In this document: one piece after another, positions 1 to 26,555 of the stretch
Numbering within the stretch: the stretch's first letter is position 1
Layout: each line of letters begins with the position of its first letter
DNA from: a virus
Lineage: Duplodnaviria > Caudoviricetes
IMG/VR virus record: IMGVR_UViG_3300042256_000025
Strand: one strand, 5' to 3'
DNA: 64,000 bases
Program-made: the position numbers and the translations under genes
The notes under the pieces: generated by a model
Told to the model about the DNA's origin: nothing
What the model saw: the letters and a program-made list of their open reading frames with translations, nothing else
Databases searched by the model: none

Positions 1-325
1 AATCCTTAGCATTGGGTAGGTCGTACCCTAGACTACGGCAGTACTCTGCAGCGGTAGCCCCAATATTACCCTGTCCATCGTTAATGGAGTTATAAGTAGG
101 ACTCGTCAGTACGTCAGTATTGTACTCGGAAGAGTTTGGATCAGTAGGGGTAGTAGTAGTACCACTGCCACTCGTCCAGTTTGGCAGACTAGTATCAGTA
201 CCGTATAAACCCCACATTTTAGTCGTACGCTGTGAAGCTGGAGCTACTACTAACCAATCTCCTCCATCCTGTCCAAAGATAATCCCTCCATCTGGCAGTA
301 CACTACCAATCTCTAATTTACTCAT
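1..325 (-). CDS. Stand-alone CLec/DUF1566-like domain protein, probable DGR-target paralog (3' end outside window)
   Basis: Not in the ORF track. ATG at 325 with upstream AGGAG reads MSKLEIGSVLPDGGIIFGQDGGDWLVVAPASQRTTKMWGLYGTDTSLPNWTSGSGTTTTPTDPNSSEYN..., nearly identical to the C-terminal domain of 23444..24514. Nucleotides 1-127 are identical to 607-733. Confidence 0.85.
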   Translation of the reverse strand, partial: MSKLEIGSVLPDGGIIFGQDGGDWLVVAPASQRTTKMWGLYGTDTSLPNWTSGSGTTTTPTDPNSSEYNTDVLTSPTYNSINDGQGNIGATAAEYCRSLGYDLPNAKD

Positions 326-403
326 CTGTATCTCCTATTACCTAGGTTTAGTGTAGCCTATCATAACGATAGGCTACTATGGTGAAAATACAAAACTCTG
401 CTA

Positions 404-1048
404 TTAACTGTCTTTAGGAATTCTCTTAAAAGGCACTACCCAGCCACTGCAGTACTTGTAGCTGGCGCCCCAATTCCCATTGCCAAAGTACAGGAGCCAG
501 GCGCTGAGGGAATTGCCCTCGGTAGAGGACCAGACGCACGCTGTGGGTAGGTTACCCGTACTATCCGCGGCGTTAATCTGAGCCCGATTATTGTAAATAA
601 GCTGCAAATCCTTAGCATTGGGTAGGTCGTACCCTAGACTACGGCAGTACTCTGCAGCGGTAGCCCCAATATTACCCTGTCCATCGTTAATGGAGTTATA
701 AGTAGGACTCGTCAGTACGTCAGTATTGTACTCTGAGCTATTGGGGTCGCTCGTTTCTGGACTACTACCTATGTTTGGAAGACTCGTATCGGTACCGTAG
801 AGTCCCCACTCCTTTTGCGCATGTAGTGAAGCCGGGGCTACTACAAGCCAATCTCCATTATCCTCTCCAAATACAATCCCTCCATCCGGAAGGATTGATC
901 CAATAGACATGCCCGTTACTGTAAAAGGTACTGCTGTAGACCATTGTGATAATGTACCAGTAAAGCCCTCGTACCTAATACTAGCATAGACAGTACCATC
1001 ATTTAAAACGACTCCTTTCTGACTAAGATCAATCTTTATATCACTCAT
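404..1048 (-). CDS. N-terminally truncated Mtd-like protein with CLec-type variable domain (DGR target)
   Basis: C-terminus VWSSTEGNSLSAWLLYFGNGNWGASYKYCSGWVVPFKR. The N-terminus matches only the end of the Fn3-like domain of 23444..24514. RBS AGGAG. Confidence 0.85.
   Translation of the reverse strand: MSDIKIDLSQKGVVLNDGTVYASIRYEGFTGTLSQWSTAVPFTVTGMSIGSILPDGGIVFGEDNGDWLVVAPASLHAQKEWGLYGTDTSLPNIGSSPETSDPNSSEYNTDVLTSPTYNSINDGQGNIGATAAEYCRSLGYDLPNAKDLQLIYNNRAQINAADSTGNLPTACVWSSTEGNSLSAWLLYFGNGNWGASYKYCSGWVVPFKRIPKDS
429..544 (-). repeat. DGR variable repeat VR1
   Basis: Aligns without gaps to the five other VRs; differences are concentrated at codon positions 1-2 of NNC/NNT codons. Confidence 0.85.
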
Positions 1049-1102
1049 TTTGTAACTCCTATTACTTAGGTTTACTGTAGCCCATTATACTAATAGGCTA
1101 CT

Positions 1103-1183
1103 TCAATCCTTATTACCCTGCCGATCTACGGGATGTACTACCTCTATATGAAAACGGCTATTTAAATCAGATTGCACATTCAT
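1103..1183 (-). pseudogene. Truncated copy of the 4252..4569 gene
   Basis: MNVQSDLNSRFHIEVVHPVDRQGNKD* versus MSEYSDLNSRFHIEVVHPVDRGGNKDW...; TGG>TGA, after which homology ends. Confidence 0.7.
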
Positions 1184-1330
1184 GTTCACTCTCCTTAGGG
1201 TTGGGTATAGTCTCTAAGGTAATATAGGTTTTCGTTATTCTAGAATAGTTAATCTAAAGAAAAAAAAGAGGATATCCTCTTTTAGTGCTGGAGGTAAGAC
1301 TCCAGCTTCATGATGTCACCCTCATCCTTA
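1105..1330. repeat. ~225-bp direct repeat, copy 1 (gene end, hairpins, early promoter, RBS, gene start)
   Basis: Highly similar to 4491-4717, for example tagaatagttaatctaaagaaaaaaaagagg and ttttagtgctggaggtaagactccagcttc. Confidence 0.9.
1219..1232 (-). promoter_or_regulatory. phiKZ-type early promoter (AAAACCTATATTAC)
   Basis: Contains TATATTAC, the phiKZ early promoter core. The motif recurs 7 times, always on the minus strand. Confidence 0.75.
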
Positions 1331-1408
1331 TCGCGATTTGAAAACCGCTTCCGTTCCAGGATGACGCGTGGGTGCTCCACGCAAACGCCGTTGTTACCTT
1401 AGTCATGA

Positions 1409-24663: not shown

Positions 24664-24700
24664 AAATTTACAATACTTCTTTCATAAAAGGATTATTCCA

Positions 24701-25381
24701 ATGAAATGTGAAATCATTCGTAATGGCAACACCATCGTTTCTGAGATGGACTTTAACGTAAACCGTGTACGTGACATTGTTGCCCGTCAGGGTGGCGATT
24801 ACCGCCTCGTACCCAATGCTCTAACTGCTGCCATCCATATTGGCTCTATTCAGATCCTCCCAGTTAAATACGATATGCCAGTTACTACTCAGGCCCAGCG
24901 CTGCGGTAAGCCGGTACGTACCGTATCAGACTCACTGGTTACCTACTCTTACCCGGTTGAAGAGAAAACCGAAGACGAGCTTCGCAATGAGCTTCTTACC
25001 CAGGTGTCCCGTATTCATGAAAGTTATGACAGCGGTCGTATGGAGTATCAGGGCGTCTCAATTGCGGTAGACCTGGAGGCCCGTGTCAATGCAGAAGGCG
25101 TACTCAAGCGTTTTGAGCGTGGTCTGATGTCGGCTACTCAGTGGAATGGTCAGGCGGTAACCTCAACCGATGAGAACGGTAATGAGGTCACTGGTCCTTC
25201 TAAGGTGGCCATTGGCTCTACCGCTGATATGCAGGCGCTGTATGATGCAGTCTTTGCACACCTCGAAGCCGGTTTCATAGCTAAAGAAATGCTCAAAGCG
25301 GAGCTCGAATCTGCTGATGCCGTTACATTGGCGACTGTAGACGTTAATGCGCGTTGGAATGAGATTGTAGAGACACTCTAA
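24701..25381 (+). CDS. Tail-fibre assembly/accessory protein (DUF4376-like)
   Basis: Lies between the two receptor-binding genes; helical C-terminal pattern like fibre chaperones (DMQALYDAVFAHLEAGFIAKE). Confidence 0.55.
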   Translation: MKCEIIRNGNTIVSEMDFNVNRVRDIVARQGGDYRLVPNALTAAIHIGSIQILPVKYDMPVTTQAQRCGKPVRTVSDSLVTYSYPVEEKTEDELRNELLTQVSRIHESYDSGRMEYQGVSIAVDLEARVNAEGVLKRFERGLMSATQWNGQAVTSTDENGNEVTGPSKVAIGSTADMQALYDAVFAHLEAGFIAKEMLKAELESADAVTLATVDVNARWNEIVETL

Positions 25382-25447
25382 GGTGTAACTAGTGATTAGG
25401 GGGTGGGTGCCCACCCCCTTTGTATACGGTTTATAGGAGCATGTAAG

Positions 25448-26434
25448 ATGCCAGATTTACAATTGAAACGCGGTACACCGGCTCAGGTAGATGCCTATCA
25501 GGGGCCAGCGGGTGAAATCGTAGTCGATAGCCAGAACTGGAATATGCGGCTACAGGACGGTGTTACAGCTGGTGGTGTATTACTAGGCAGTAACGAGAAC
25601 CTGATTGCACGCCCTGAGATTTTGAGTCCCATTCAGGGTAGTGTCATTGGGGACCAGAGCCCTATTCTGGTTAGTACCGCGTATAGTGGGGAAGGGGTCC
25701 ACAGTGCGAGTCAGTGGCAGATCAGTGGAGAGGTTGGGTTTGTAAACCTTATCCACGATAGCGGACGCAATACAGTTAGTCTATTGAGCTATAACTTACT
25801 GGATGCAGGTGTAACCTTGACCCGTGGGGTAACGCTGTACGTACGGGTGCGTCACGAATCCGGTACTGCAGGCTGGAGTGAATGGAGTGAAGCACTAAGC
25901 TTCAGTGTACAGGCAATGGAGCCGGGTACTGTACTGGATGACGGTGGCATTATATTTGCACAGGATGGTAATGATTGGCTCGTTGTAGCGCCTGCTAGTC
26001 TGCGTGCACTGAGAACCTGGAACGATGGGTCTACTAGTTGGGTAGACACCCCACTCCCTAACTATACTTCTAATCCAGAGCAAGACGTTAACGATGGTAC
26101 TTACAATACGGATGTACTGGTTAACGTGACGCAGGAGCAGAAGGCCGCTACCTACTGCCGTTCTATCGGCTATGATTTGCCGAATGCGGCAGAGCTTCGT
26201 TTAATTTACAATAATCGAGCTCAGATCGATGCAGCAGATACCAGCGGAGGCGGGGCCACACTCTCCGCTATCCAATCCGGCACTGCACCCGGCTCCACCA
26301 CGGCGGCCGTCTGGTCCTCTACCGAGGGCAATTCCTACTACGCCTGGGGCCTGATCTTTGGCGGTGGGAGTTGGTACAACTTCTACAAGAGCTACAGTTA
26401 CTGGGTAGTGCCTTTCCGGAGAATCCCAGTCTAA
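25448..26434 (+). CDS. Mtd-like receptor-binding protein (Mtd_N, Fn3-like, CLec variable domain); DGR target
   Basis: MPDLQLKRGTPAQVDAYQGPAGEIVVDSQNWNMRLQDGVTAGG closely resembles Mtd_N; YVRVRH...WSEWS is Fn3-like; VR reads VWSSTEGNSYYAWGLIFGGGSWYNFYKSYSYWVVPFRRIPV. Confidence 0.9.
   Translation: MPDLQLKRGTPAQVDAYQGPAGEIVVDSQNWNMRLQDGVTAGGVLLGSNENLIARPEILSPIQGSVIGDQSPILVSTAYSGEGVHSASQWQISGEVGFVNLIHDSGRNTVSLLSYNLLDAGVTLTRGVTLYVRVRHESGTAGWSEWSEALSFSVQAMEPGTVLDDGGIIFAQDGNDWLVVAPASLRALRTWNDGSTSWVDTPLPNYTSNPEQDVNDGTYNTDVLVNVTQEQKAATYCRSIGYDLPNAAELRLIYNNRAQIDAADTSGGGATLSAIQSGTAPGSTTAAVWSSTEGNSYYAWGLIFGGGSWYNFYKSYSYWVVPFRRIPV
26297..26423 (+). repeat. DGR variable repeat VR6 with IMH-like end
   Basis: See VR5. 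Confidence 0.9.
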
Positions 26435-26459
26435 TCGCCTTAAGGCGATGACTGGGATT
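26422..26459. other. Hairpin at the VR6 3' end
   Basis: aatcccagtc...gactgggatt enclosing the palindrome atcgccttaaggcgat. Confidence 0.75.
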
Positions 26460-26466
26460 TGCCTTT

Positions 26467-26555
26467 GGGCTTGCCCTTTGTAGGGCTGCCCTTACTACTT
26501 TGAGTACTTTTAAAAGCCGTACAGGCTACCCAGGCCCTTTGTAGGGACTGGGTCC
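26467..26555 (+). repeat. 89-bp double-hairpin element, copy 2
   Basis: See 24575-24663. Confidence 0.85.

Follow-up and report, generated by a model that had tools for sequence, protein, structure and literature searches.

Diversity-generating retroelements (DGRs) have been described in bacteria as well as in temperate and crAss-like phages. The DGRs of crAss-like phages and of Hankyphage, some of them in non-temperate phages, diversify tail-fibre or DUF1566-type domains; to our knowledge, these phages do not build a phage nucleus, the protein shell that surrounds phage DNA and excludes most cytoplasmic proteins. In phage BPP-1 the diversified gene ends in an initiation of mutagenic homing (IMH) element plus a hairpin. 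Here we analyse a 64,000-nt stretch (the window) of the virus record IMGVR_UViG_3300042256_000025 and describe the DGR that acts on it. The element is real, active and canonical, and its host lineage, the phiKZ-like phages, is unusual; activity is seen for two of the six complete genes with variable repeats (VRs) in the window. The window corresponds to bases 44866-108865, minus strand, of the 195,544-bp record (the 195.5-kb genome copy). Genome coordinates refer to that copy and window coordinates to the 64-kb stretch, position 1 being its first letter.

The survey of Wu et al. 2018 (PMC5758913) listed up to seven non-adjacent or eight tandem targets per DGR, and non-adjacent targets of phage-associated DGRs lay almost always within 50 kb of the reverse transcriptase (RT) gene. 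Iyer et al. 2021 (PMC7824862) found the DGR-type FGS lectin domain to be absent in 224 jumbo phages. The literature library searched yielded no report linking DGRs with phiKZ-like, nucleus-forming or Chimalliviridae phages, and the GenBank phage records yielded no DGR in the phiKZ-like lineage, in agreement with the initial annotation, which knew of no characterised case; the largest record with an RT match was 137 kb among the matches listed. The RT of Staphylococcus jumbo phages is not a DGR.

The retroelement and its variable repeats

Six complete genes within the first 27 kb of the window, on both strands, share an ungapped segment of about 120 nt. Invariant codons (TGG TCC TCT ACC GAG, GCC TGG, AAG, TGG GTA GTG CCT) are interleaved with variable NNY codons, in which positions 1 and 2 vary and position 3 is kept C or T. 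The codon following GCC TGG is CTC, TAC, TAT, TGC, AAC or GGC in the six genes. The six genes are those initially annotated, and this set of codons is exactly the one listed there.

The search of the 195,544-bp record with the six segments produced eleven copies. The one at 176.6 kb, the sole AAC-rich copy, is identified as the template repeat (TR), because it has AAC or AAT wherever the VRs vary and ends in a stop codon. Its 117-nt core contains 39 adenines and 16 AAY codons, close to the seventeen variable codons counted at first. The count of six targets was too low: ten VR-bearing genes are present in the genome copy, including the one at window positions 2-325 (-), and two more on the linking contig L046 make twelve, that is, three large targets and nine small lectin genes, of which four complete ones are in the window.

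The TR is located outside the window, in a cassette formed by a target gene, a putative avd, TR and the RT gene. The target encodes 431 aa and is lectin-tipped, with its VR at the 3' end. The RT (377 aa) matches RVT_1 with an E-value of 1.7e-18, and the motifs IGNLLSQ and YVDD are seen in its translation. It is 28.6% identical to Brt of BPP-1 (E 2e-29). Its nearest GenBank relatives, among the matches listed, show about 44% identity and come from 42-57-kb phages of Burkholderia, Shewanella and Pseudomonas, while relatives in IMG/VR, on contigs of 12-94 kb, show 44-60%. The putative Avd is an open reading frame (ORF) of 134-157 aa between the target and the TR, matching NF033474 (E 8.5e-7, 29 bits vs the cut-off of 80) and Pfam bAvd (E 8e-4, below the curated cut-off). 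The genome-wide search for RT, Avd and TR proposed in the initial annotation thus located a cassette in the same phage, albeit with a weak Avd match, and by these matches the phage appears to carry a complete canonical DGR. A GTCC-TTCG-GGAC stem-loop lies immediately downstream of the TR and overlaps the beginning of the RT ORF (contig L001, 6680-6740; genome about 176,690-176,710); it is possibly part of a structured spacer in the DGR RNA.

Variation among the VRs is concentrated at the TR adenines, as expected of the DGR footprint proposed initially. For the six window VRs, 34 of the 39 TR-adenine columns are variable vs 23 of the 78 other columns (Fisher p = 3e-9), and the numbers of variable columns at codon positions 1, 2 and 3 are 24, 19 and 14 of 39. 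For the three clean VRs the respective values are 25/39 vs 2/78 (p = 2e-13) and 14, 12 and 1 of 39. Third-position variation equal to that at the first and second positions, named in advance as refuting a DGR origin, is not observed; the third-position variation among the six VRs comes mostly from decayed small copies. The mismatches of each VR with the TR core are listed in Table 1 together with the positions of all features.

Table 1. Features of the DGR and its surroundings. Positions are those of the window unless marked as genome; mismatches are counted against the 117-nt TR core, separately at TR adenines (A) and elsewhere (non-A).
Feature	Position	Strand	A	non-A	Remarks
DGR cassette	genome 174.5-177.8 kb				outside the window
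TR	genome 176,555-176,680
VR of cassette target			15	0
g23444	23444..24514	+			356 aa; Pfam Lcl_C E 1.4e-4; fibre-type target, remote from TR
VR of g23444	24383..24502	+	13	2	non-A: TTCAGC vs TTTGGC; differs between samples at TR-A sites
Hairpin after VR of g23444	24501..24524	+			perfect 10 bp: GAATACCCGT, TTAA loop, ACGGGTATTC; spans stop codon
Shared 92-nt structured 3' element	24572..24663	+			repeat family D8, 90% identical
g25403	25448..26434 (ATG), or from GTG 25403	+			328 aa, or 343 aa
VR of g25403	26303..26422	+	20	0	mismatches at TR adenines only; differs between samples at TR-A sites
Hairpin after VR of g25403	26422..26459	+			long, directly 3' of VR
Second copy of 92-nt 3' element	26464..26555	+			repeat family D8
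g404	404..1048	-	22	3	214 aa; VR 422-541; 3' end altered to TTTAAGAGA; singleton cluster
g1409	1409..2356	-	16	5	N-terminal lectin-fold domain with internal VR 1979-2098, T4_Y16D-like C-terminal domain
g2487	2487..2972	-	20	13	161 aa; decayed VR 2625-2744
g3750	3750..4208	-	16	4	152 aa, minimal lectin-fold protein; VR 3804-3923
189-aa lectin gene, N-terminal part	2..325	-	18	10	VR off window, genome 108973-109092
Contig-start gene VR			18	9
134-aa gene VR			14	21
Conversion tract	1..130	-			130 nt, 99% identical to 607-736, in paralogues otherwise about 77% identical (repeat families D5, D6)
Tail-fibre module	18322..23315	+			two fibre genes and a DUF1353 chaperone-like gene, just upstream of g23444 and g25403

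Variation between samples

The variant data are independent metagenome assemblies of sister strains, 98-99.8% identical and not clones. The 226-aa protein encoded between g23444 and g25403 recurs without a single change on 22 contigs of other samples. The VRs flanking its gene on those contigs differ from those of the window, and from one another, almost only at TR adenines. Between the window and sample 3300042275 there are 50 differences in 8975 aligned nucleotides; 38 of them fall in the two VRs, 36 at TR adenines and two at A sites immediately 5' of the 114-nt cores. In the 6-kb cassette, 13 positions differ from sample 3300042272, all in VR1 and all at TR adenines, with TR, Avd and RT identical.

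The same pattern is observed in proteins. Clusters at 90% identity contain seven variants of g23444, seven of g25403 and three of the cassette target. The closest variants differ in 8-14 VR residues and are identical outside the last 45 residues; specifically, the four closest variants of g23444 are identical outside this region or differ at one site, and the three closest full-length cluster members of g25403 are identical outside the VR. The presence of the parts of the element, the adenine specificity and the variation between samples are direct observations, and they argue strongly for present-day rewriting of g23444, g25403 and the cassette target by the element, the first two being 92-94 kb from the TR. 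Contig breaks at VRs were considered as a further sign of heterogeneity and rejected, since the VRs share long identical words and the breaks can be repeat-induced.

Elements at the 3' ends of the targets

For the three varying genes, the homology between TR and VR ends in the GC-rich CTGGGTAGTGCCTTTCCGGAGA, followed directly by a perfect hairpin across the stop codon. The hairpin of g23444 is found again after the VR of the cassette target. Such hairpins follow the VRs of the three large targets only and are conserved in other strains, and the post-VR hairpin is a candidate target-recognition element of the DGR. The 3' end of the three large targets matches the IMH-plus-hairpin arrangement of BPP-1. 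The 92-nt structured element is present after the cassette target as well. The small genes all lack a post-VR hairpin, and in most of them the VR has a changed 3' end, TTTAAGAGA or CGTAAGGTA.

The variable domain and the fibre-type targets

The profile of the variable domain found 1298 relatives, and Pfam Lcl_C is matched by 23 of 53 relatives. The sole protein modelled well is g3750 (AlphaFold2, 53-sequence alignment, predicted local distance difference test score, pLDDT, 91.5). The top Foldseek match of this model in the PDB is 8q4e, the C-terminal domain of Legionella Lcl (E 8e-6, TM 0.72), followed by many C-type lectin domains. Viral-library matches of the domain are DUF1566 and tail-fibre proteins. 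The Pfam matches and the g3750 model support a C-type-lectin fold of the Lcl_C/DUF1566 type for the VR domain, the lectin fold having been suggested initially. The search of PDB sequences with the lectin alignment profile retrieved only the neck repeat of DC-SIGNR, a spurious match.

The two fibre-type targets of the window are 92-94 kb from the TR. The g25403 protein matches Lcl_C (E 5.8e-5) and Mtd_N (E 3.5e-3), both under the Pfam cut-off. The g23444 protein consists of an N-terminal segment that aligns with the weakly Mtd_N-like one of g25403, an intervening domain and a C-terminal lectin-fold domain. The module upstream of these genes was delineated from PHROG matches to tail fibre and tail assembly chaperone and from Pfam families on the called genes. 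Most likely, g23444 and g25403, as well as the cassette target, form receptor-binding fibre tips, so that the element would vary host recognition.

The tail-fibre module has its own polymorphism. The two tail-fibre genes contain and share direct repeats of 60-65 nt with 66-77% identity (19003-19535, 21078-21138), which represent fibre repeat units. In the sister strains L023 and L024 two extra genes (197 and 207 aa) are situated between the fibre gene and the 276-aa gene (window 21248-21639), and the 306-aa fibre gene of these strains is only about 81-86% identical. The polymorphism at 21248-21639 is independent of the DGR.

Origin and state of the small lectin genes

We infer the following steps of retrohoming. 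The TR transcript would be reverse-transcribed by RT-Avd with misincorporation opposite adenines, and the complementary DNA (cDNA) would replace the VR at sites marked by CTGGGTAGTGCCTTTCCGGAGA and the following hairpin. The three fully marked genes, the cassette target, g23444 and g25403, would be rewritten in this way. The small lectin genes would be duplicated and recombined copies of the same domain, which have kept the adenine-biased imprint, lost the hairpin and accumulate ordinary mutations. We consider it highly probable that one canonical DGR wrote all twelve VR genes, six of them in the window, that three are active and that the small ones are dormant or at best rarely hit. The initial claim that one DGR diversifies at least six dispersed targets holds as regards ongoing diversification of two window genes plus the cassette target; it is not supported for the four small genes, given the missing hairpin, the non-adenine drift and the lack of variants in the data available.

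The small genes are mosaics and have indels in common with different large genes. The tract at 1-130 is a recent gene conversion between neighbouring lectin genes. Relative to the TR, the four small window genes have 3-13 non-adenine changes. These data fit equally copies of an active VR made at different times and VRs written by an earlier TR allele. In the latter case the small-gene VRs would have been written by another template, either that earlier allele or a second or foreign DGR, and stranded when the template changed. This is possible, if somewhat doubtful. Several copies do have non-A differences in common: TTCAGC in place of TTTGGC of the TR is seen in g23444, g1409, the 189-aa gene, the 134-aa gene and the contig-start gene, and TTTAAGAGA at the 3' end is seen in g404, the 189-aa gene, the contig-start gene and P0024. 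Moreover, g23444 of other strains has TTTGGC, as in the TR, TTCAGC there being specific to this strain. However, the 195.5-kb copy yielded no further TR or RT, and gene conversion among paralogues, for which the 130-nt tract with 99% identity is direct evidence, can equally spread shared variants.

It is unlikely that all VR genes including the four small ones are current targets, with the small proteins serving as free hypervariable binders. All VRs but one are significantly adenine-biased relative to the TR, and g404, g1409 and g3750 have only 3-5 non-A changes; however, the copying of an active VR would pass on the adenine bias too. Small lectin-only DGR targets have been described (Wu et al. 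2018, PMC5758913). In strain L037 (96% identical), the interval from the ligase gene to thyA contains a single lectin gene. It is of the g1409 type, and its VR is unlike that of the window at 16 adenine sites, differs from the TR by 16 A and 3 non-A mismatches and is not followed by a hairpin. On the other side, in addition to the absence of hairpins and the altered 3' ends, two independent Logan runs agree fully in the VRs of g3750, g2487 and g1409. The g2487 VR has hardly changed even in a divergent strain and is therefore regarded as frozen, and each small protein is a singleton in the 90%-identity clusters, without variants. Probably, the four small window genes are dormant or at best rarely hit, and current activity on the small genes is unlikely.

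It is very improbable that chimeric assembly, or gene conversion swapping cassettes between the twelve paralogues, has produced the differences between samples. Although recombination among the paralogues occurs and contigs often break at VRs sharing long identical words, no variant VR seen in the fibre genes matches the VR of any paralogue, the changes are only at TR adenines, and the non-A positions agree with the TR rather than with the small genes. Least credible of all is a fossil, the fallback of the initial annotation, or a paralogue family of the usual kind, diversified by selection while no retroelement is active: although the window itself contains neither RT nor TR and some copies are clearly decayed, RT, Avd and TR are intact in the same genome, the TR is invariant between sister assemblies that differ nearly exclusively at TR adenines, and the third codon position is variable in one of 39 columns of the clean VRs.

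Several points weigh against the picture of three active fibre-type targets and dormant small genes. The comparisons are between assemblies of sister strains and bear only indirectly on variation within one population. The dormancy is deduced from few comparisons, as there are two Logan runs and the strain is present on only three to four contigs. The g1409 relative carries another VR that is almost clean and lacks a hairpin, and the shared TTCAGC and TTTAAGAGA variants are unexplained by the present TR. The Avd matches are under both curated cut-offs. The fibre role is derived from the gene neighbourhood and the sub-threshold Mtd_N match, and the full-length AlphaFold2 model of g25403 (13-sequence alignment) has a pLDDT of 44 and is unusable.

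Several other features of the small lectin cluster were observed. The g1409 protein matches phrog_839, and PF26092 is recorded for it and for its relatives. A block of about 230 nt (89% and 86% identical), containing an A-run and a terminator-like hairpin, is present at 1104-1331 and 4490-4718, 3.4 kb apart; this repeat marks a segmental duplication that helped build the cluster. Successive small lectin genes are separated by a conserved 52-nt intergenic element (327-378, 1051-1102) with a TAGCCTAT...ATAGGCTA hairpin. The interval from ligase to thyA (window 4208-4734 leftwards to thyA; contigs L003 and L037) is a hot spot of gene content, with six lectin genes here vs one in L037, plus unrelated small genes including T4 Y07B-like and Y16D-like ones.

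The phage

The phiKZ-like identity suggested initially is supported by a number of genes. The phage encodes the PhuZ tubulin (phrog_4733, E 3e-60; gp39 of phiKZ, E 6.6e-22 at 32% identity; Pfam Tubulin, 32 bits, slightly below the cut-off) and a split RNA polymerase of the phiKZ type, including a non-virion RNA polymerase (nvRNAP), with matches to an RNA polymerase beta subunit (phrog_2987, E 9e-114) and to phrog_2943, labelled only 'polymerase' (E 2e-125). The DNA polymerase is of the phiKZ type. Among the virion proteins, the major head protein matches phrog_3231 (E 5e-122), an internal head protein matches Pfam phiKZ_IP, the tail sheath matches the structures of phiKZ gp29 (E 2e-82), and a structural protein matches phiKZ gp128 (E 4.5e-53).

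Chimallin, whose search together with that for PhuZ had been advised initially, is absent from the 195.5-kb copy, as searched with phiKZ gp54 alone and then with a 7-sequence chimallin profile. It is reached via linking contigs. Contig L046 overlaps the start of the copy and contains three tandem small lectin genes preceded by a 75-aa gene end, which shares 99% identity with the C-terminus of a 629-aa protein of the approximately 92%-identical strain L047. That protein is placed in L047 between the end and the start of the 195.5-kb copy, and it matches the chimallin profile over the full length (E 5.7e-54) and PhuN of phiPA3 (PDB 8fne, E 9.5e-5). By this linkage through L046 and L047, in which only the C-terminal end is read in the phage's own strain, the phage encodes chimallin directly upstream of the three small lectin genes. 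Four other proteins considered as chimallin candidates were rejected: the 698-aa protein (36011-38107) proved to be a virion protein similar to phiKZ gp128, the 679-aa protein the tail sheath, and the 733-aa and 754-aa proteins the DNA polymerase and NrdA.

From its gene content, the phage is assigned to phiKZ-like, nucleus-forming phages with Chimalliviridae features and a genome of about 200 kb. The longest contig carrying VR genes is 199,512 bp long, and a bridge of about 4 kb joins the two ends of the 195.5-kb copy. The label 'jumbo' used initially does not apply strictly, as 199.5 kb is just under the usual threshold of more than 200 kb, the true size being uncertain at a CheckV completeness of 71%. 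The search of the phage collection for near-identical DNA with 11 kb of the window gave no match, and the exact VR pattern had no hit among viral contigs other than this record and its near relatives.

L047 lacks the three small lectin genes that separate chmA from the nvRNAP beta' gene in this phage (L046; G000 1-1643). Because chmA and the nvRNAP beta' gene, both core genes, adjoin there, the lectin block is an insertion. An HNH/NUMOD-type homing endonuclease gene is situated immediately 3' of the nvRNAP beta' gene (L002, 1735-2742). NrdA (L001, 11142-13406) matches R1 of the E. coli class Ia ribonucleotide reductase over the full length with 1054 bits, which suggests a recent host-derived gene and a gammaproteobacterial host. 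The 584-aa ORF at window 40677-42431 (-), beside the RNA polymerase-type gene, matched nothing in PHROGs, Pfam, PDB sequences, the GenBank phage collection or the protein Atlas.

Discussion

The rewriting of VRs in spite of the nuclear shell poses a concrete question, namely, whether RT-Avd enters the nucleus or the cDNA reaches the DNA otherwise. Only tentatively, and with more doubt than belief, may one imagine retrohoming inside the chimallin-walled nucleus, with RT-Avd made in the cytoplasm, selectively imported and acting on replicating DNA about 94 kb apart. The nine anchor-less lectin genes would then be a recombination reservoir exchanging VR segments with the fibre genes, or free hypervariable binders. 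The twelve VR paralogues range from active to decayed and form a natural series that can help to define the requirements of a target site.

The closest characterised system is the DGR of BPP-1 (mtd-avd-TR-brt). It features the same order of target, Avd (putative here), TR and RT, adenine-specific changes from TR to VR that affect AAY codons, a 3'-terminal VR in a lectin-fold receptor-binding protein, here with a weakly Mtd_N-like N-terminus, and the GC-rich VR end followed by a hairpin. However, BPP-1 is a 42-kb temperate podovirus with one target, whereas the phiKZ-like phage of about 200 kb has three active targets, two of them about 94 kb off, and nine further VR copies. Further, the lectin domain here is of the Lcl_C/DUF1566 type, not that of Mtd, and the system is known from sequence alone.

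The DGRs on phage contigs of IMG/VR have the same VR scaffold, SSTE..AW..NNNNKNN..W.VP.R, and in four of six the same target-Avd-TR-RT order. They differ in having a single VR beside the RT gene, within the 11-21 kb compared, in records of 12-94 kb; the phiKZ-type nvRNAP had no match in five tested contigs of this group (24-94 kb). The temperate phages of Burkholderia, Pseudomonas and Shewanella (42-57 kb), e.g. phage Magia, are likened to this phage by the RT only, at 44% identity. The crAss-like phages and Hankyphage belong to another virus order, and their RTs are more distant, with about 26-31% identity.

The multi-target DGRs of Treponema denticola and Stenotrophomonas resemble this element in having one TR and many VRs, but they are not described as phage elements (PMC5758913). 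Relative to the survey of Wu et al. 2018, in which 50 kb is the usual limit, the phiKZ-like phage has twelve VR-bearing genes and a DGR acting within the phage genome over about 94 kb, on active targets 92-94 kb away.

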